8,164 bases of DNA, taken from a virus (Duplodnaviria > Heunggongvirae > Uroviricota > Caudoviricetes). A program made the position numbers and the translations under genes. The notes under the pieces are model-generated. The model made no database searches. It was not told the DNA's origin and saw only the letters and a program-made list of their open reading frames with translations. This document shows, piece by piece, positions 1 to 8,164 of the stretch (position 1 is the first letter of the stretch; every line of letters begins with the position of its first letter). The stretch is taken from IMG/VR virus record IMGVR_UViG_2609459850_000003; one strand, 5' to 3'.

Positions 1-362
<362 letters not shown>

Positions 363-442
363 CAAGGATTTTGACTCATGGAAGAGTCCTTTTTATTTAA
401 ATTTCACATTCAGCGCTAAAAATAATCCGATTTAATATTAAT

Positions 443-1470
<1,028 letters not shown>

Positions 1471-1583
1471 GGATATTTATCAGGATTTATCGGCTTCAAA
1501 TCCCCGGATATGTTAAATCTTACCTCACCAGTGATGGGCACTGGCGGGAGGAGGATGTCAATCTGATAAACACAGAGGCGACT

Positions 1584-1844
1584 ATGGATTACACAAATCT
1601 ACCTAAACAAACTTTTGCTGATTTAATCGCACTCAGGCAAGCAGTCGTAGCTCTAATCAACTTGTTGCCGGAGAAGGAAAAGGAATTAGTTAAAGCGCTT
1701 CTTAACAGAACTGCCGCCGATTTTTCATCATATCCACTGACAGATGACCTTGCGGACCTTCCTGAATTAATTGCAGCGTCCGCCAATAAGCTTACTGAAG
1801 AGATTTACCCTCCTCAAAAATCTTCACAAAATTCCTGCGAGTAA
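1584..1844 (+). CDS. Possible small acidic helical protein (86 aa), antisense to the lysis operon; hypothetical
   Basis: ATG at 1584 is preceded by AGAGG at 1574-1578 (5-nt spacer). The translation has amphipathic-helix character (LIALRQAVVALINLLPEKEKELVKALL). Its 3' 53 nt overlap the convergent 183-aa ORF, and the C-terminal tail looks low-complexity. It occupies an otherwise unexplained gap of about 320 bp between the endolysin and the upstream ORF. Confidence 0.3.
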   Translation: MDYTNLPKQTFADLIALRQAVVALINLLPEKEKELVKALLNRTAADFSSYPLTDDLADLPELIAASANKLTEEIYPPQKSSQNSCE

Positions 1845-2343
1845 CTTCAATGCAATAATCGTAAAACGCCGCAAACTGCTCATCGCGGCGTTTTTTTTCA
1901 TCTTCAGAAGGAATCAGCACCGACAATTTTTTATTCAGATCAGCGACGCTGCCCTCCAGTTTTTCAATGGGCGATTCAATATCATCTTTTTCTGACCGCA
2001 ATGCCGTCGGTGGCGTCTTCAGAGAACCAGTAATTCTTCCCGGTAGCTTTCCTTTGTAGGTTATCCACACATTCTGCGCCTCTAAAATTATGGGGCGCTT
2101 TTCCGGCGACTGCTCATCCCCTTCACATAACCCGGCAGCAACATCCAGGAAGACCTGTCTGATGCTCCTTCTGGCTGCTGCCTCATAAAACTCCAGCGCG
2201 GCACCTTCAACACGGTCCAGCGAGATGTCCAGGTCAAAAATTTCACCGTCAAAGTGTTTTTTGTCCCGTAAGGCTACAGTTACCGCCACTTTATTCTCAA
2301 AATTGCGAACTCCTTTCACAACCAGTTCATAGTCTTGAGTCAT
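1792..2343 (-). CDS. Hypothetical phage protein (183 aa) located between holin and endolysin
   Basis: Long ORF on the lysis-operon strand; first ATG at 2343 lies 4 nt after the holin stop, with a purine-rich GAGAG upstream (the ORF track's 2364 start is TTG). Mixed charged and hydrophobic composition, no transmembrane segment seen by eye, no family recognised. Occupies the slot of ydfR in K-12 Qin but is much longer. Confidence 0.6.
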   Translation of the reverse strand: MTQDYELVVKGVRNFENKVAVTVALRDKKHFDGEIFDLDISLDRVEGAALEFYEAAARRSIRQVFLDVAAGLCEGDEQSPEKRPIILEAQNVWITYKGKLPGRITGSLKTPPTALRSEKDDIESPIEKLEGSVADLNKKLSVLIPSEDEKKRRDEQFAAFYDYCIEVTRRNFVKIFEEGKSLQ

Positions 2344-2347
2344 TGGA

Positions 2348-2563
2348 TTACTCTCTTCTCGCAACCTTACGCCTGTCTTCTTTAATCTTGAAATAAAGGT
2401 TTGTCAGATACGTCAGCATGCCAAATACCAGACTACCCAATACACCTATTGCCGCCCACTGTGAGGGCGTGACTTTATCGAGCAACTGTAAAAACCAGTA
2501 GCCAGCACTGCCTGCAGAGGTGCTGTAGGCGATGCCCGTTGTTAACTTATCCATGGATTTCAT
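2348..2563 (-). CDS. Class II holin of the phage 21 S21 pinholin family, with dual-start motif
   Basis: 71-aa product [71 protein letters not shown]: two transmembrane domains (the first Gly/Ala/Ser-rich and SAR-like) and a basic C-terminus. The M1-K2-S3-M4 dual-start motif is characteristic of S21-68/S21-71 holin/antiholin. Strong RBS GGAGGTGAGG upstream of the ATG at 2563. The ORF-track extension to 2647 has no ATG start. Confidence 0.9.
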
Positions 2564-2648
2564 AGCCTCACCTCCGCAGATAACGGATGGTGTACACGGT
2601 TTGGTTCGAAGAAGGAAAGAAGTTACATTAGCGTAAGGCCCGAACATC

Positions 2649-2685
2649 TATTCAAAAAGAAAAACGCCAGCAATTATTCTGGCGT
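2649..2685 (-). terminator. Putative rho-independent terminator downstream of the AraC-family gene
   Basis: 7-bp perfect stem ACGCCAG (2664-2670) / CTGGCGT (2679-2685) with an 8-nt loop. On the minus strand it is followed by a T-rich tract (reverse complement of 2649-2663 is TTTTCTTTTTGAATA). About 70 nt downstream of the AraC stop. Confidence 0.5.
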
Positions 2686-2753
2686 AGCTAAAAATATCGT
2701 ATAATCTTACACTTCAAAAAATAACTTTATAAAATGCCATCACATCATATCTT

Positions 2754-3467
2754 CTAAGAAAATCTTGATAAATATTGGCGCGGAGGCACACCAAAATATC
2801 CTCTAAAAACACTTACAAAATATGATGCATTGTCATACCCGCATATTCCCGCCACCTTGCCGACAGTATGGTTACTGTAGATCAATAATCTTTGCGCCAT
2901 CATCATTCGTTCTTCAAGAATTAATTTACTAAACGATAACCCTTCGTCTTTTAATTTTCTTTTTAACAAACTCTCGCTCATATATAATCTTGAAGATATA
3001 TCACAAAGTCTCCATGACGCTGAGATATCCGAGTGAATAATAGCCTTAACTTTACAACCTAAGCTATTAAGACTTCCGAACAAAAAACTTTGCACTATTT
3101 TCTCTGAAGATAAGACAGCAAGACATGCAAGTGATATTTGATTTCTAACTACATCCACGGTTTTGCTATCACAATTCAAGCATGCAACCAAGTTCCTTAA
3201 CAAGGAAAAATCTTCACATTCTACTATCAAGTATGACGGATAAAACCTTCTTACAGAAAAAGGTGAGAGTGTGTAGTTTTTAAAGAAATCATTAACTGTT
3301 TTCTCCTCAACATCTACGATCATTAGATGATCTGTATTTGACGAAAAAAGATCTTTTAAATTGTATTCAATGAGGACAGCATTTCCTTTTTTAAACAAAA
3401 TATCTTCTTTACCAATTCGGACACCAAACGAGTTCAACACCAAAATGATAGAACATATGTATGGCAT
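2754..3467 (-). CDS. AraC/XylS-family transcriptional regulator (AppY/EnvY/Rns-like), AT-rich xenogeneic gene
   Basis: ATG at 3467 with RBS AGGTGG 5 nt upstream (the ORF-track start at 3476 is GTG). The C-terminal roughly 100 aa carry the double helix-turn-helix signature of the AraC family (...SFSKLILEERMMMAQRLLIYSNHTVGKVAGICGYDNASYFVSVFRGYFGVPPRQY). The gene and about 400 bp upstream are visibly AT-rich. Confidence 0.85.
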   Translation of the reverse strand: MPYICSIILVLNSFGVRIGKEDILFKKGNAVLIEYNLKDLFSSNTDHLMIVDVEEKTVNDFFKNYTLSPFSVRRFYPSYLIVECEDFSLLRNLVACLNCDSKTVDVVRNQISLACLAVLSSEKIVQSFLFGSLNSLGCKVKAIIHSDISASWRLCDISSRLYMSESLLKRKLKDEGLSFSKLILEERMMMAQRLLIYSNHTVGKVAGICGYDNASYFVSVFRGYFGVPPRQYLSRFS

Positions 3468-3873
3468 ATTATCCACCTGATATCATTGGGGTTACACCAG
3501 GTAAGTATAGGTGGAAAATCAATATTCGCCAGTTCAACAATAAGGAAAATCTCATTGCATCACAACTATAAAACCATGTGTTTAACTCACAAAAAACAAA
3601 TCATTAAACTAATCTGTTATATTATAATAGCTGCGTGCAATAATAATATTATATGCTCTTAATATTCACTTGAAATATCTTCATATAAAAACAGATTGAA
3701 TAAAATCTTTTGGGGCTGGTATGTTTACCAACATTAAATTGCATCTCAATGTTTTCTTTAGCGTGAACAGGATTTTTATACAAACTGACACTATGGGCAT
3801 CATAGCGTAGTTTTTACGATTGTAAATATCCTGCATACAGGAACTCATCACTTTCAGATGATATCGCATACAG

Positions 3874-4833
3874 TTAATTCACCATCAGTCTTAGAGCCAG
3901 TTCTTCCGGATAGGGATCGAAGTAATTCTGTGTAAGCAAGTAATCATTAGGATACTCACCCAGATAATGCTTCAGCAGAGTCAACGGCGCAAGAAGAGGC
4001 AATGTGCCAAAGCGATAGTTAAGTATAACCTCGCTCAACTCTTTACGCTGGCGTGTACTTAAGTAATTACTAAAATACCCCTGTATATGCATCAGCACAT
4101 TCGTGTGATTTTTACGTGATGCTGGTTTTCTGAGAATCGCCATCAGATTATCACGATACACCTCAAAGTATGATTCAAGGTCCGCCCACTCGTGTATTGC
4201 AGCCACAAATGGTCCCATATCTTTATAGCCTGCCTGGCTATGCGCCAACAACTGAAGCTTATAACGACTATGAAAAGCTAATAACTCTCTTCTTGATAAT
4301 TTCTCCTTGTAAAGATGATTGAGCTCATGCAAAGCAAAAACTCTTTCAATAAAATTCTCACGAAGCACTGGATCATGTAATCGCCCATCCTCTTCAACCG
4401 GTAGCCAGGAAAACTTTTCCATCAAAGTGCTCGTAAATAGTCCCACTCCATCTTTACGACCTCGATTACCATTTTCATCATAGACACGCACGCGCTCCAT
4501 GCCACAGCTGGGAGATTTAGCACAAACCACAAACCCCGATACATCCTTTAATTTGTCCATATAAGAACGACTAAACTCTGTCATTCTCTCTGTCACATCC
4601 TCATTCTGGTCGTGGCTGAAACACATCCGTATATTTCCTTGCTTCGAGCGCACAAGTCGTAGAGCAGGACGCGGAACTGGCAGCCCTATAGCCATTTCCG
4701 GACATACTGGTCTGAATGTTACCCATTCCACTAATTTGTCCATTAAAAAGTCATCTCTTTTGTGACCACCATCAAAACGAACAGCAGAACCGCCCAAACA
4801 ACCGCTGATCCCAATCACAGGTTTTTTTATCAT
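3874..4833 (-). CDS. DUF523 (TudS-like [4Fe-4S] thionucleobase desulfidase) fused to DUF1722 (YbgA-like); RudS-like
   Basis: 319-aa ORF; ATG at 4833 with strong RBS GGGGGAGG. N-terminus MIKKPVIGISGCLGGSAVRFDGGHK...PVCPE...KSPSCG matches the recalled DUF523/TudS pattern with three conserved Cys positioned as Fe-S ligands. The C-terminal roughly 170 aa are helical, consistent with DUF1722. The domain call is from recalled signatures, not a search. Confidence 0.75.
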   Translation of the reverse strand: MIKKPVIGISGCLGGSAVRFDGGHKRDDFLMDKLVEWVTFRPVCPEMAIGLPVPRPALRLVRSKQGNIRMCFSHDQNEDVTERMTEFSRSYMDKLKDVSGFVVCAKSPSCGMERVRVYDENGNRGRKDGVGLFTSTLMEKFSWLPVEEDGRLHDPVLRENFIERVFALHELNHLYKEKLSRRELLAFHSRYKLQLLAHSQAGYKDMGPFVAAIHEWADLESYFEVYRDNLMAILRKPASRKNHTNVLMHIQGYFSNYLSTRQRKELSEVILNYRFGTLPLLAPLTLLKHYLGEYPNDYLLTQNYFDPYPEELALRLMVN

Positions 4834-5025
4834 TTCCTCCCCCTTGACTAATTCATTAACACATAAACTTTGTAGTGCACGGACTAAATTGCCTTTCTGG
4901 CTTCATCACTGACAATTTTTCTGTTATTGACTATTCCTAATATAGTAGGAAAGTTCTTTAAGTGATCGGTCGTACTCATCTATCTTTCATACTTACTCTC
5001 AACTATCAAAAGTACAGGATTTATT
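4834..5025. promoter_or_regulatory. Divergent intergenic region between the DUF523-DUF1722 gene (-) and the lipocalin gene (+); presumed promoters and operators
   Basis: 192-bp AT-rich spacer between divergently oriented start codons. Contains TTGACT-like hexamers (for example 4927-4932) and an imperfect direct repeat TGACAAT (4910-4916) / TGACTAT (4928-4934). No promoter could be assigned confidently by eye. Confidence 0.35.
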
Positions 5026-5550
5026 ATGAAGTTATGGCCTGTGTTGACTGGCATTGCACTCTCTTTCACTCTTATAGCATGTAAGGCCCCGACACCACCT
5101 AAAGGTGTGCAGCCGATTACAAATTTTGACGCCAACCGCTACCTCGGAAAATGGTATGAAATAGCTCGCCTCGAGAACTGGTTCGAACGTGGTCTGGAAC
5201 AGGTCAGCGCTACTTATGAAAAACGGAACGACGGAGGGATTCGCGTACTTAACCGTGGATACGATCCAACGAAAAACAAATGGAGCGAGAGCGAAGGTAA
5301 AGCATACTTTACTGGAGATACTAAAACTGCAGCGTTGAAAGTTTCGTTTTTTGGCCCCTTCTATGGTGGCTATAATGTAATCAAACTGGATGATGAGTAT
5401 AAGTATGCTCTTGTCAGTGGTCCGAACAGAGAATACCTATGGATTCTGGCAAGGACCCAAACTATTCCAGATAATGTAAAAGCAGACTATGTGCGTACCG
5501 CTCAAAAGTTGGGATTCAATGTCAATGAACTATTATGGGTTAAACAATAA
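5026..5550 (+). CDS. Bacterial lipocalin (Blc-like outer-membrane lipoprotein)
   Basis: 174-aa ORF; ATG at 5026 with CAGGA 6 nt upstream. Lipoprotein signal with lipobox L-I-A-C. Lipocalin SCR1 motif NFDANRYLGKWYEIARLENWFERG and downstream KVSFFGPFYGGYNVIKLDDEY...YLWILART closely parallel E. coli Blc as recalled. Confidence 0.9.
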   Translation: MKLWPVLTGIALSFTLIACKAPTPPKGVQPITNFDANRYLGKWYEIARLENWFERGLEQVSATYEKRNDGGIRVLNRGYDPTKNKWSESEGKAYFTGDTKTAALKVSFFGPFYGGYNVIKLDDEYKYALVSGPNREYLWILARTQTIPDNVKADYVRTAQKLGFNVNELLWVKQ

Positions 5551-5578
5551 AATCCCCACCCGAAATGATACTTATTAG

Positions 5579-5605
5579 AAAAAAACCAGCCTTTGGGGAG
5601 GCTGG
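5579..5605 (-). terminator. Rho-independent terminator on the minus strand, candidate tR' of the phage late operon
   Basis: Stem CCAGCCT (5586-5592) / AGGCTGG (5599-5605) with a 6-nt loop, followed on the minus strand by seven U (A-run 5579-5585 on plus). About 100 nt downstream of the Q stop, matching the lambdoid pR'-tR' architecture. No T-run follows on the plus strand, so it is not a good terminator for the lipocalin gene. Confidence 0.6.
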
Positions 5606-5705
5606 CTAAATCAGGAAACAAGCTGTTATATGATAATAACTACGTTGCGATTCCAACATTTAAAATGTTAGACTAATGAAAATCAGACAGCAACTTTTCC
5701 TTTAA
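5606..5705 (-). promoter_or_regulatory. Putative late promoter pR' / qut region between Q and the tR'-like terminator
   Basis: Position is immediately downstream of Q and upstream of the intrinsic terminator. Contains a 7-1-7 palindrome AACATTT-a-AAATGTT (5655-5669) and several -10-like hexamers on the minus strand (TATAAC, TTAAAT). Exact -35/-10 not assignable by eye. Confidence 0.3.
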
Positions 5706-6083
5706 TTATTTCGAACAATCAGCATCCATCTCCAATCGGAGATCCAACACCATCAGCATGCCCTCCACTACGCCCTCAGCTTTCTGGAGCATCCTGCCAA
5801 CCCAACAATCAGATCGCCCATGCTTACGTGCAAGCGCCATAAAAGTCATGCCGCCGACATAATAGTCCACCAATAAATCATGTAAATCGCTGTTGTTTTT
5901 TTTCAGGCGAGCCATACATTCACAAATGATCATCGCGTCATCGTCACAGCATTGCGGACGAGATCTTACTTTTGAAGGAATTAATCCCTTAAAACCGGCG
6001 GCAATGGACGACCAGGTCACATCTTCATGATTATTAGCCGCCCATGCCCCCCAACGCTCAAGAACCATCTGAATATCACGCAT
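5706..6083 (-). CDS. Phage late-gene antitermination protein Q (phage 82/21 QuuD-like type)
   Basis: 125 aa from ATG at 6083 with RBS GGAG 7 nt upstream (the ORF-track start at 6098 is TTG). Sequence [24 protein letters not shown]...[32 protein letters not shown] closely resembles DLP12 QuuD as recalled, including the Cys cluster. Located immediately upstream of the late promoter/terminator and lysis genes. Confidence 0.8.
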
Positions 6084-6100
6084 CAACTTACTCCACAAAA

Positions 6101-7150
6101 TTAGGCCAGCACACCAATTGCCAGCGCGCGATCGATAAATCGAAAAATCAGCTCCAGTTGGGAGCCATACTTCTCTTCAAATGCCACGGTATCCGTATGC
6201 AACTCGTCGTGATGCTTTCTGCACAAAGGCAAAACAAAGAGATCATGTGCTTTGGTTCCCATTCCGCCCTGCCCGTGACCAATCAGATGATGCGGATCGT
6301 CGGCTGGCATACCGCAGCAAGCACACGGCTGTGTCTTAACCCAGCGTGTGTATTTCTCCTTAACCCACCGGTGACGTTTAGGCAGCTTCATGAAAGATTC
6401 CGGAGACTCTGGATCAACGGTGATGCTTACCACCGTCTTTTCCTGTGATGGGTTTTGTTGCTGGTGGGCGTGAGGCAACGGTGCAAGATTTTTTGTGCGC
6501 TGTTTCAATATGCTGGTGGCGGTCTGCTCTCCCGGTACGATGTCGCTTTCGCGGTACACCGAGCAGATTTTTTCCGCTGGTAATCCCAGCGAGCGACGTA
6601 ATACCGCTTCCGGTAGCGCGTCCGCCAGCTGATTGCGGACCGCCCACCAGGATAATTCAGCCAGAGATAATTCACGCTCCTGCGTACCGCTTATTGCGTG
6701 ACCGATGACGTCAATCATCCATGCTGACAGGTTTTGATGAGCAAGTTGCTCGAGTGATTCGGATGTCTGGTCACGCAGCTGGTTGTCGCAGTGCCAGCAC
6801 AACACCATTGCGCCGGTACCATATCGGTGAATAACGGTTTCGCTGTGATGATAATCGCCGTGTGGCCACTGGCAGGATTTAATATGGCGCAACAGCCAGT
6901 CAGACAATGCACCAGCACCACCAGCAGCACGAATTACCCGTGCGTTACTGAAAAACGGCAGCAATGTTTTGTCTTCCACCAGCGGCTGGCGAACGGCAGG
7001 AACGACCCCGGACGGCAGATTACGCATGCTTTTCGGTTCCGGCTCCACCAGTACCCGGGTATTGTGGAATACCGGCATGGATTCACGGCCCGGCTTAACG
7101 ACCACCAGCCCGAGTTCCGGTACCAGAACAGGTCGAAGTAATACCCGCAC
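6101..7150 (-). CDS. YdfU-like prophage protein (349 aa) with C-terminal Cys/His-rich YbcO-like putative zinc-binding/nuclease motif
   Basis: GTG start at 7150 preceded by GGAGG, with the upstream gene's TAA lying between the RBS and the start (coupled). Same length and genomic position (immediately upstream of Q) as Qin YdfU as recalled. C-terminus ...[45 protein letters not shown] resembles the small nin-region protein YbcO (DUF1364). Confidence 0.75.
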
Positions 7151-7151
7151 G

Positions 7152-7430
7152 TTACCTCCAGATGCGTTGCTGGAATGTACGGGACGGACGCGGTGGGCGT
7201 TCGGAGTAAGGCAATCTGACTGAGATTATCCAGTGACGGTAGTCGAGACTAAGGGCTTTCTTAACCTCGTATCCGCGCCTGCGGTAACACTGAATTATCC
7301 ATTCAGCCTGCTCTTCAGTGCATGGAGGGTGTTGGAACCATTCAGACTTGAATGCGTGAGAATACCGCTCGTGCGTGCAGACAAGAACGGGCGAATTATC
7401 AGAATTGTAATATTTTACGTTGCGTGCCAT
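7152..7430 (-). CDS. Hypothetical phage nin-region protein (92 aa)
   Basis: ATG at 7430 with GGAG 7 nt upstream. Its stop is 1 nt from the YdfU-like start, so the two are likely co-translated. Contains Cys/His residues (LVCTHERYSHAF...HPPCTEE). No family recognised. Confidence 0.55.
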   Translation of the reverse strand: MARNVKYYNSDNSPVLVCTHERYSHAFKSEWFQHPPCTEEQAEWIIQCYRRRGYEVKKALSLDYRHWIISVRLPYSERPPRPSRTFQQRIWR

Positions 7431-7496
7431 CGGTTTTCTCCGGTGGCACGGTGTTACTCAGCGGGAGTTCAGCCCCGCGCAAGATTGTAGATGAGT

Positions 7497-7748
7497 TTAT
7501 TCTTCTGCAAAAGCTGAAAAGCCTGCTTTTATTCCGATCTCTTTCAGTGCCTGTAATGAAGTGACAAACTCACCTTCGCGCAAGATAAATCCGTCTGTCA
7601 CTCGACCATCCACAAAATTAATTAACGCAGCCCCATTCTTTCGCAAACACATAATGCGGTAATGACTAACAAGATTTCCATTTTCAACGCACACAGCATA
7701 GAGGCCATCTTCACAAAAATTTTTACGCAGTTCTTCGATATTCATCAT
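7497..7748 (-). CDS. Hypothetical phage protein (83 aa), possibly Rem-like
   Basis: ATG at 7748 with RBS GGAAGGA 5 nt upstream. Same length and relative position as rem next to ydfU in K-12 Qin as recalled; no sequence-level confirmation is possible here. Its upstream region is cut by IS1. Confidence 0.55.
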   Translation of the reverse strand: MMNIEELRKNFCEDGLYAVCVENGNLVSHYRIMCLRKNGAALINFVDGRVTDGFILREGEFVTSLQALKEIGIKAGFSAFAEE

Positions 7749-7830
7749 CAGAATCCTTCCGGATAATTAGCTCTCCCCTTTAAGGGACCATCCCTCTTAT
7801 CCCTGCGCGCTACTTAAGTATTTTTGATTC

Positions 7831-8164
7831 GGTAATGACTCCAACTTACTGATAGTGTTTTATGTTCAGATAATGCCCGATGACTTTGTCATGCAGCTCC
7901 ACCGATTTTGAGAACGACAGCGACTTCCGTCCCAGCCGTGCCAGGTGCTGCCTCAGATTCAGGTTATGCCGCTCAATTCGCTGCGTATATCGCTTGCTGA
8001 TTACGTGCAGCTTTCCCTTCAGGCGGGATTCATACAGCGGCCAGCCATCCGTCATCCATATCACCACGTCAAAGGGTGACAGCAGGCTCATAAGACGCCC
8101 CAGCGTCGCCATAGTGCGTTCACCGAATACGTGCGCAACAACCGTCTTCCGGAGCCTGTCATAC
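7831..8164 (-). mobile_element. IS1 insertion sequence, terminal 334 bp (continues beyond window end)
   Basis: Terminal inverted repeat ggtaatgactccaacttactgatagtg begins at 7831. The following sequence encodes the InsB C-terminus on the minus strand and matches IS1 as recalled nearly base for base. Confidence 0.9.
7846..8164 (-). CDS. insB: IS1 transposase InsB, C-terminal part (5' end outside window)
   Basis: Translation ...[88 protein letters not shown] is the canonical InsB C-terminus. TAA stop at 7846-7848 sits just inside the IS1 terminal repeat. The frame stays open to the window edge. Confidence 0.9.

Follow-up and report, generated by a model that had tools for sequence, protein, structure and literature searches.

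The DNA considered here is a stretch of 8,164 nucleotides, called the window, from a Caudoviricetes virus record (IMG/VR record IMGVR_UViG_2609459850_000003). Between the antiterminator gene Q and the holin gene of a Qin-type lambdoid prophage it carries a block of three genes, which encode a lipocalin (blc), a RudS-type tRNA desulfidase (rudS) and an AraC-family regulator (araC). The block is likely to be a composite moron cassette in the late-operon leader of one Escherichia coli lambdoid lineage, in which the genes are independent passengers kept together by linkage. It is a well-defined and common phage cargo and not a new kind of system. Its position, linkage, gene integrity and terminators are observed directly; the scheme by which it is expressed we infer. 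Profile matches confirm the three genes where a first-pass annotation of the sequence had placed them, as a lipocalin, a DUF523-DUF1722 fusion and an AraC-family gene between Q and the holin:

5026-5550, plus strand: lipocalin lipoprotein of the outer membrane, Blc-like, in antisense orientation to the late transcript
3874-4833, minus strand: RudS-type tRNA 4-thiouridine desulfidase, TudS fused to DUF1722, sense to the late transcript
2754-3467, minus strand: AraC-family regulator of the GadX/YdeO/Psr/Rns type, 237 amino acids, sense to the late transcript

Positions 363-8164 of the window are matched at 100% identity by E. coli strains D72 and ES3. The late genes lie on the minus strand, and in the order of late transcription they are DUF968/YdfU, Q, the block, a class II holin, a DUF1327/YdfR-like gene, lysozyme and the Rz spanin. 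The end of an IS5 insertion sequence (1-363) and an IS1 (from about 7831, to 8164) lie at the window ends and cut the region short. The genes that frame the block are the following:

6101-7150, minus strand: DUF968/YdfU gene, before Q in late-transcription order
5706-6083, minus strand: Q antiterminator, QuuD-like, a distant Q21 relative (PF06530, E 8e-51; Q21 structure 6P18, E 5e-9; annotated as "antiterminator Q family" in D72)
2348-2563, minus strand: class II holin, essQ, the first late gene past the cargo (PF04971, E 8.9e-34; annotated essQ in D72)

From Q to the holin the block occupies window 2584-5723, which is 3.1 kb with a guanine-cytosine (GC) content of about 38%. It had been described as more AT-rich than the phage backbone, and the measured values agree: positions 2649-5705 have 38.1% GC, compared with 46.7% in the left flank and 50.4% in the right. 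Lowest are araC itself, at 34.0%, and the spacer 5' of it, at 31.5%.

The limits of this insert can be read from comparison with prophages of E. coli K-12. On the holin side homology stops at window 2583-2592; on the Q side the limit is 5724 relative to DLP12, and 6101 relative to Qin, whose Q differs. Between homologous flanks, Qin holds cspF/cspB behind its different Q, and DLP12 holds nmpC behind a Q that is 80-81% identical. Since other cargo is found between homologous flanks, the block is a replaceable insert. In Shiga-toxin (Stx) phages the Q-to-holin slot is occupied by stxAB.

Compared with these three examples of cargo, stxAB, nmpC and cspB/cspF, the block lies in the same slot, past Q, the late promoter pR' and the terminator tR', and before the holin. 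It likewise has an atypical base composition, is present or absent between homologous flanks, and must be crossed by Q-antiterminated transcription. It differs from them in consisting of three unrelated genes of stress or housekeeping type and not of genes for toxin, porin or cold-shock proteins. In addition, the late transcript runs antisense to blc, tRNA genes are absent, and the block is tied to one Q allele.

Some part of the block is present in 1154 of 5426 complete E. coli genomes, or about one fifth, and at least 80% of it in 883. Twelve deposited phage genomes also carry it, including complete phages of 46-48 kb. Among isolated or ICTV-classified phages, IdasGreatGrand, 1H12 and the Lambda_ev series have it between Q and the holin. 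The order Q, blc (on the opposite strand), rudS, araC, holin is found in IdasGreatGrand and 1H12, in the DLP12-type AR_0013, in the lambda-like Ec-FL1-1X and at the Qin site of D72. Likewise, IMG/VR viral loci with an E. coli-type RudS show this order in 36 of 36 cases, wherever flanks are available. Prophages with the block sit at two different chromosomal integration sites. The proposal that it is accessory cargo, in the slot that corresponds to stx, is thus upheld by phages and by Qin-site and DLP12-type prophages alike.

Selection on the genes was estimated from three allelic series. The ratio of nonsynonymous to synonymous divergence (dN/dS) lies at 0.06-0.19 in blc, at 0.10-0.17 in rudS and at 0.21-0.27 in araC, which amounts to purifying selection on all three intact genes. 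These values bear on a different reading, in which the block is not phage cargo at all but a chromosomal island that simply lies next to the prophage, or else a set of decayed phage genes. Only the atypical GC content and the insertion sequences at the window ends could be cited for such an origin. Against it, the block lies within complete phages and at two chromosomal sites, always flanked by Q and the holin, and its three proteins belong to clear non-structural families with dN/dS well below 1. A conserved non-prophage locus and decayed structural genes had both been named as findings that would speak against cargo; phage genomes, two sites, intact families and dN/dS rule them out, leaving this reading hardly any chance of being correct.

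The linkage of the block to its flanks was followed in the same 5426 genomes with probes that span the junctions. A 600-bp probe for Q|blc found its junction unbroken in 1084 genomes, and the probe for araC|holin did so in 978; the gene order is constant in the contexts inspected. The three genes thus travel together between Q and the holin gene S, which was a point that the first-pass annotation had asked to be checked. The Q allele itself, taken at 90% identity or more, occurs in about 1116 genomes, and blc abuts Q in 1084 of these. The block is therefore tied to one Q allele, and it is more apt to regard Q, late leader and cargo together as the mobile module.

No trace of the block was found outside E. 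coli when an invariant 22-mer of its spacer was sought in 100,044 species-representative genomes, and protein searches for the phage-type RudS and the regulator gave E. coli matches only. The commensal strain HS carries the cassette. In B strains (C41(DE3), BL21 and REL606) an IS3 cuts rudS at about window 4687. Insertions of IS1, IS2 and IS3 within the cassette are common in other genomes, and strain ZF8-1 has lost araC beside an IS1. PADLOC defence models gave no match for the products of blc, rudS and araC. In PHROG each of the three proteins has its own family, and all are labelled "unknown function".

The protein for which most is known from experiment is RudS. The window protein contains PF04463 (DUF523/2-thiouracil desulfurase) at residues 7-149 (E 5.8e-40) and PF08349 (DUF1722) at residues 192-309 (E 9.4e-40). 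RudS was characterized by Jamontas et al. (2024) as a [4Fe-4S] desulfidase that converts tRNA 4-thiouridine (s4U) to uridine, with an essential Glu/Ser/Ser triad in RudS_KT (PMC11417400). The cluster residues of the window protein, Cys12, Cys44 and Cys110, agree with Table 1 of that paper, and Glu46, Ser107 and Ser109 lie at the offsets of the catalytic residues E51, S111 and S113 of RudS_KT.

One close relative has been assayed. Gene product 66 of phage 1H12, synthesised as "RudS_vir", lowered tRNA s4U in E. coli (PMC11417400). It is 91.8% identical to the window RudS, has the same two domains, cysteines 12, 44 and 110 and catalytic Glu and Ser residues, and comes from the same cassette in 1H12; its genomic setting, neighbours and prevalence are not described in that paper. 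Removal of s4U from tRNA, as seen for RudS_vir, can be predicted for the window protein by analogy. In the same study, overexpression of RudS lowered tRNA s4U and lessened the growth delay caused by ultraviolet A (UVA), and the RudS genes of chromosomes serve the host under stress and belong to light-responsive operons (PMC11417400).

The origin of the phage rudS was sought among chromosomal genes. Among the chromosomal RudS proteins of Citrobacter, Klebsiella, Serratia, Pectobacterium and Salmonella, mutual identity is 82-92%, but identity to the phage clade is only 72-76%, and no close donor of the phage RudS was found in protein searches. In Citrobacter braakii the chromosomal RudS gene is the end of a conserved nine-gene operon (110-6960) that runs SnoaL_2, SDR, amine oxidase, DUF1365, CFA synthase, DUF2878, an unassigned 175-residue protein, DUF3833 and RudS. 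The phage rudS is accompanied by none of these neighbours. We considered whether blc and rudS descend together from the enterobacterial RudS operon, and rejected this: the neighbours there are DUF2878, the 175-residue protein and DUF3833, and the 175-residue protein has no similarity to the window lipocalin. In Salmonella LT2 the RudS gene is controlled by a MerR-family and not an AraC-family regulator (PMC11417400).

A different RudS is found in Rac-like lambdoid prophages of Salmonella (in IMG/VR, for instance at 4377-6423 of locus L058). With a Salmonella Derby protein it shares 98% identity, and with the window RudS 72%. Its gene is flanked by DUF977 and a DinI-like gene and lies upstream of DUF968 and Q, and in the same prophages the slot between Q and S holds unrelated cargo that includes an MvdD-like ATP-grasp protein. 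The Salmonella phage RudS looks like a second, independent capture.

The lipocalin is assigned by profiles: it matches Pfam Lipocalin_2 (E 7.5e-43), and its score with the NCBIfam Blc subfamily, 312.6 bits, exceeds the cut-off of 267. Like the chromosomal Blc known from structures 1QWD, 2ACO and 3MBT, it has a lipobox and an outer-membrane sorting signal: its signal sequence, as read from the translation, ends in FTLIAC19, whose lipobox is L-I-A-C19, and has Lys at +2. An ungapped alignment of 155 residues with E. coli Blc (3MBT) gives 62.6% identity. It differs from chromosomal Blc in being a second, phage-borne paralogue with an unrelated promoter region. Because the chromosome has its own Blc, lysogens carry two.

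The third protein is a regulator whose gene starts at the ATG at 3467, not at the GTG at 3476. It matches HTH_18 (E 2e-16) and has a C-terminal double helix-turn-helix AraC domain and an N-terminal regulatory domain. Its best NCBIfam profile is YdeO (112.9 bits, far below the cut-off of 348); GadX gives 89.7 bits (cut-off 500). Over both of its domains, an AlphaFold model with a confidence (pLDDT) of 85 is similar to CsvR, Rns and ToxT, at E of about 1e-10 to 1e-11. The same model matches the DNA-binding domain of GadX with a structural-similarity (TM) score of 0.87-0.90 and 40% identity.

Prophages of enterohaemorrhagic E. coli (EHEC) encode the AraC-like regulators PsrA, PsrB and PatE, which activate gadE/hdeA acid resistance and repress type III secretion (PMC10877973). 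The window regulator resembles those of EHEC O157:H7 in its length (237 residues), its two-domain layout and its location between antiterminator and holin. It is 37% identical over its full length (E 3e-49) to an AraC-like protein of the OI-57 prophage of strain EDL933, whose gene lies between the antiterminator and the tRNA/holin region. That protein is probably PsrB, to judge by its position in OI-57. No AraC homologue that would correspond to PsrA was found in the region examined of the OI-50 prophage. The window regulator is too divergent for shared targets to be assumed, has its own allelic series (98, 84 and 75%), and has no effector or Pch genes nearby. Judged by its sequence, it is a homologue, and not an orthologue, of YdeO, GadX and PsrA/B.

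Near relatives of the regulator (98, 84 and 75-79% identity) are all from E. coli, and those with a context that was examined lie in this cassette. More distant relatives, at 37-39% identity, lie alone in the same Q-holin slot, behind two other Q families. In phage ev099 a homologue with 46% identity (3510-4253) is found between the tail-fibre genes and the integrase, so the regulator family occupies more than one moron site.

Expression of these genes has to be considered together with the late operon, in whose leader they lie. A canonical Q cassette consists of the Q gene, the promoter PR', a sigma-dependent pause element, called SDPE, a terminator and then the late genes (bioRxiv 10.1101/651190). 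Corresponding features follow Q in the window; here and below, A, B and C are the three alleles compared:

5665-5693, minus strand: candidate late promoter pR', TTGCTG-17 nt-TAACAT, a weak consensus, conserved in alleles A, B and C
5608-5645, minus strand: late-leader element copy 1, 38 nt, with the -10-like sequences TATCAT and TATAAC, a candidate sigma-dependent pause element, conserved in the three alleles
5577-5607, minus strand: tR'-like intrinsic terminator about 100 nt past the Q stop codon, a nine-pair stem followed by U7, with an identical stem in the three alleles
2654-2685, minus strand: intrinsic terminator between araC and the holin, a stem (2685-2664) and a T-run

The relative position of promoter, pause candidate and terminator fits the canonical cassette, and the candidate pR' was read directly from the sequence. 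The core of the first leader element, ATATAACAG, is shared with the leader between quuD and nmpC in DLP12. The tR'-like terminator has a fold of -14.9 kcal/mol (z -3.87), and none of 200 shuffles folds as low. No tRNA genes or known RNA families were found in the slot; the sole Rfam match in the block is below threshold and overlaps this hairpin. The terminator before the holin had been noticed on the minus strand at 2649-2685 from the sequence alone, and its fold of -11.3 kcal/mol (z -2.9) and a stem that does not vary among four sequences, which differ by a single loop change, substantiate it.

Functional phages carry the block, and homology to the Qin and DLP12 holins of K-12 starts just 20-30 bp 5' of the holin ATG. 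For these reasons, late transcription must cross both the block and the second terminator. The holin reading frame, taken mechanically, reaches 28 codons further 5', to an ATG at 2647 just past the terminator; the annotated start at 2563 has a Shine-Dalgarno sequence.

Within the block, promoter-like elements are found before blc and araC:

4834-5025, no strand: rudS-blc spacer, 192 bp, with 96% column identity among the three alleles, whose flanking genes differ by 5-9%
4988-4996, plus strand: -10-like CATACTTAC, a sigma-S-like candidate for blc, 29 nt before the blc ATG
3502-3510, minus strand: CTATACTTA, a sigma-S-type extended -10 candidate 34 nt before the araC ATG, an exact match, invariant in alleles A, B and C and containing ATACTTAC
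3780-3826, minus strand: conserved element just past the rudS stop codon, TTTACA-16 nt-TATGAT, scoring 10/12 in the promoter scan and conserved in alleles A, B and C

Two copies of the 8-mer ATACTTAC are found in the window, where 0.18 would be expected, and two copies were seen in 1 of 200 shuffles. Both are in the sense orientation and conserved, and they lie directly 5' of blc (29 nt) and araC (33 nt). The second lies in CTATACTTA, which we take to resemble the sigma-S extended -10 motif. The element at 3780-3826 also folds as a hairpin (-12.7 kcal/mol, z -5.46). It is thus a promoter-like site, or a hairpin that could end the rudS transcript. Small open reading frames (ORFs) in the 406-bp spacer between rudS and araC were considered as genes; they are not conserved among the alleles, so the spacer is taken as non-coding.

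The spacer between rudS and blc had been proposed as a divergent promoter region. It is conserved and holds a sigma-S-like -10 candidate for blc, but the promoter scan found no sigma-70 consensus promoter in it. The wider suggestion that the block is an autonomously regulated unit has partial support, from the conserved terminators and the candidate -10 elements of blc and araC. It does not extend to rudS, which has no recognisable promoter, and both rudS and araC are sense to the late transcript.

Taken together, these features suggest how the cassette might be expressed. In a lysogen, blc and the regulator gene would be transcribed from their own -10 elements of the sigma-S/sigma-70 type, and the tR'-like terminator past Q and the terminator before the holin would insulate the block and keep the lysis genes silent. 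On induction, Q-modified RNA polymerase from pR' would read through both terminators, cross the block and reach the lysis and structural genes. Such read-through is expected from the canonical Q cassette and from the existence of plaque-forming phages that carry the block. During this phase rudS and the regulator gene would be transcribed in the sense direction and blc in antisense.

Under the reading of independent passengers, the pay-off would most likely be host stress fitness. RudS would cut the near-ultraviolet growth delay, an effect shown with overexpression of a 92%-identical allele. By analogy, Blc would serve envelope lipid homeostasis and the regulator would rewire acid and stationary-phase genes.

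One can also imagine that rudS mainly has a lytic-cycle function. In this scenario it would be expressed from the Q-antiterminated late transcript, like Stx, and would strip s4U from tRNA or salvage thiolated uracil nucleotides during the burst. For example, it might keep translation running under the sunlight or UV that induces the prophage, and blc and the regulator would then be the only lysogenic-conversion genes. The orientation of rudS, sense to the late transcript, fits this scenario, as do its strong Shine-Dalgarno sequence and the effects of overexpressed RudS on tRNA s4U and UVA growth delay (PMC11417400). It also fits that the scan recognised no promoter 5' of rudS and that there is no ATACTTAC-like element before it, although so simple a scan may have missed a promoter. 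A further point in favour is that Salmonella lambdoid prophages have independently gained another RudS, beside a DinI-like SOS gene. However, LexA-box matches in the window are at chance level, on which ground SOS control of the cassette was rejected. In addition, RudS_vir has the lowest tRNA activity among the RudS proteins assayed, despite good protein levels (PMC11417400), and the chromosomal counterparts are host stress genes. A mainly lytic role is therefore unlikely, with a modest chance of being right.

A more general form of this idea is that temperate enterobacterial phages have on repeated occasions acquired a tRNA 4-thiouridine eraser that benefits the phages themselves. RudS made from the late transcript would then remove the near-UV-sensitive s4U8, and so save translation and phage yield or evade an s4U-dependent response of the host. 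To this we assign a small probability.

Another model treats the three genes as one regulon. Here the AraC-type protein would directly control the rudS-blc spacer, possibly in response to fatty acids as Rns and ToxT do, and the lipocalin would supply or buffer the lipid signal. The strict co-occurrence of the three genes is consistent with this model, and so is a spacer that is more conserved than the genes adjoining it. Likewise, rudS without an obvious promoter could need an activator, and the regulator model is nearest to the fatty-acid-binding Rns, CsvR and ToxT, with Blc being a lipid-binding lipocalin. Nevertheless, no repeated operator-like motif was found in the rudS-blc spacer. In other phages, Psr-like regulators are found in this slot by themselves, and their targets are chromosomal gad/hde genes; the Salmonella phage RudS has no such regulator beside it. 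The divergence history of araC differs from that of blc and rudS. Finally, genes that lie within 3 kb of one another, between two essential phage functions, are kept together by linkage, and no common function is needed to account for their co-occurrence. The model has a slim chance of being correct, and the three genes are not a proven regulon.

The history of the alleles gives some indication of how the passengers may have come together. Among the three alleles, compared over 2348-6083, synonymous divergence is 0.05-0.30 for blc and rudS, and 0.31-0.62 for araC and the holin. This jump may mark a recombination joint, situated in the AT-rich spacer that separates rudS from araC. The same spacer contains a second copy of the late-leader element:

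3598-3636, minus strand: late-leader element copy 2, with a perfect TATAAT, about 130 nt 5' of the araC ATG, present in alleles A and B and degraded in C

In local alignment, 3598-3636 and 5645-5608 reach a score of 41, compared with 19.5 +/- 2.4 and a maximum of 34 in 500 shuffles. The leader duplication and the synonymous jump together suggest assembly of the cassette through recombination in late leaders, by which blc-rudS and araC may have been joined from different phages. An ancestral arrangement of Q, leader and araC without blc-rudS, as the duplication would imply, was sought with a chimeric query and matched none of the 5426 E. coli genomes.

Several points weigh against the reading of independent passengers expressed as described above. 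The candidate pR' matches weakly and is not called by the consensus scan, and the promoter assignments in general rest on short motifs. Expression of rudS in lysogens is uncertain, as no promoter is recognised. RudS_vir combines its low tRNA activity with the shortest lag and best growth rescue on free 4-thiouracil of the proteins assayed (PMC11417400), and the true substrate in vivo could differ. The regulator is just 37% identical to the probable PsrB, itself named from its OI-57 position. Finally, the synonymous jump from rudS to araC may mean that the block is two modules with separate histories.

Two other reading frames lie beyond the cargo, in the lysis cassette. The interval between holin and lysozyme holds a 190-residue DUF1327/YdfR-like ORF (1792-2364, minus strand), full-length to phrog_2091; the YdfR of K-12 has 103 residues. 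An 86-residue ORF (1584-1844, plus strand), full-length to phrog_2572 of unknown function, is convergent with it and overlaps its end.

Much about this cassette has precedents. The slot and the concept of cargo in it are classical, one of the genes has already been assayed, and AraC-like regulators in the slot are known. The first-pass annotation did not recognise the gene combination as a described module. For the unit this agrees with the literature searched, in which no paper was found to combine prophage, lipocalin and YbgA, or to cite the RefSeq protein accessions, and PMC7724020, considered as one, concerns other genes. It is not correct for the parts, as the RudS of 1H12 (PMC11417400) and Psr-type regulators in the slot (PMC10877973) had been reported. 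What appears to be new is the cassette as a unit, its linkage to a Q allele, its prevalence, its anatomy, the duplicated segment of the late leader and the second capture of a RudS.

For the biology of E. coli, the most direct consequence concerns tRNA modification. E. coli has been said to lack RudS and TudS (PMC11417400); this holds for K-12 and is contradicted by about one fifth of complete genomes. Differences between strains in tRNA s4U and in the response to near-UV may be prophage-dependent. The cassette also contributes a second paralogue of Blc, and a widespread branch of the Psr/PatE prophage regulators, a family that rewires genes for acid resistance and virulence. A tRNA-modification eraser sits in the regulatory position of Shiga toxin, and the idea that prophage induction reprograms tRNA modification becomes testable. 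If phages have indeed taken up RudS as an s4U eraser to their own advantage, tRNA de-modification driven by phages would be a widespread trait, found in about one fifth of complete E. coli genomes and gained independently by Salmonella phages.

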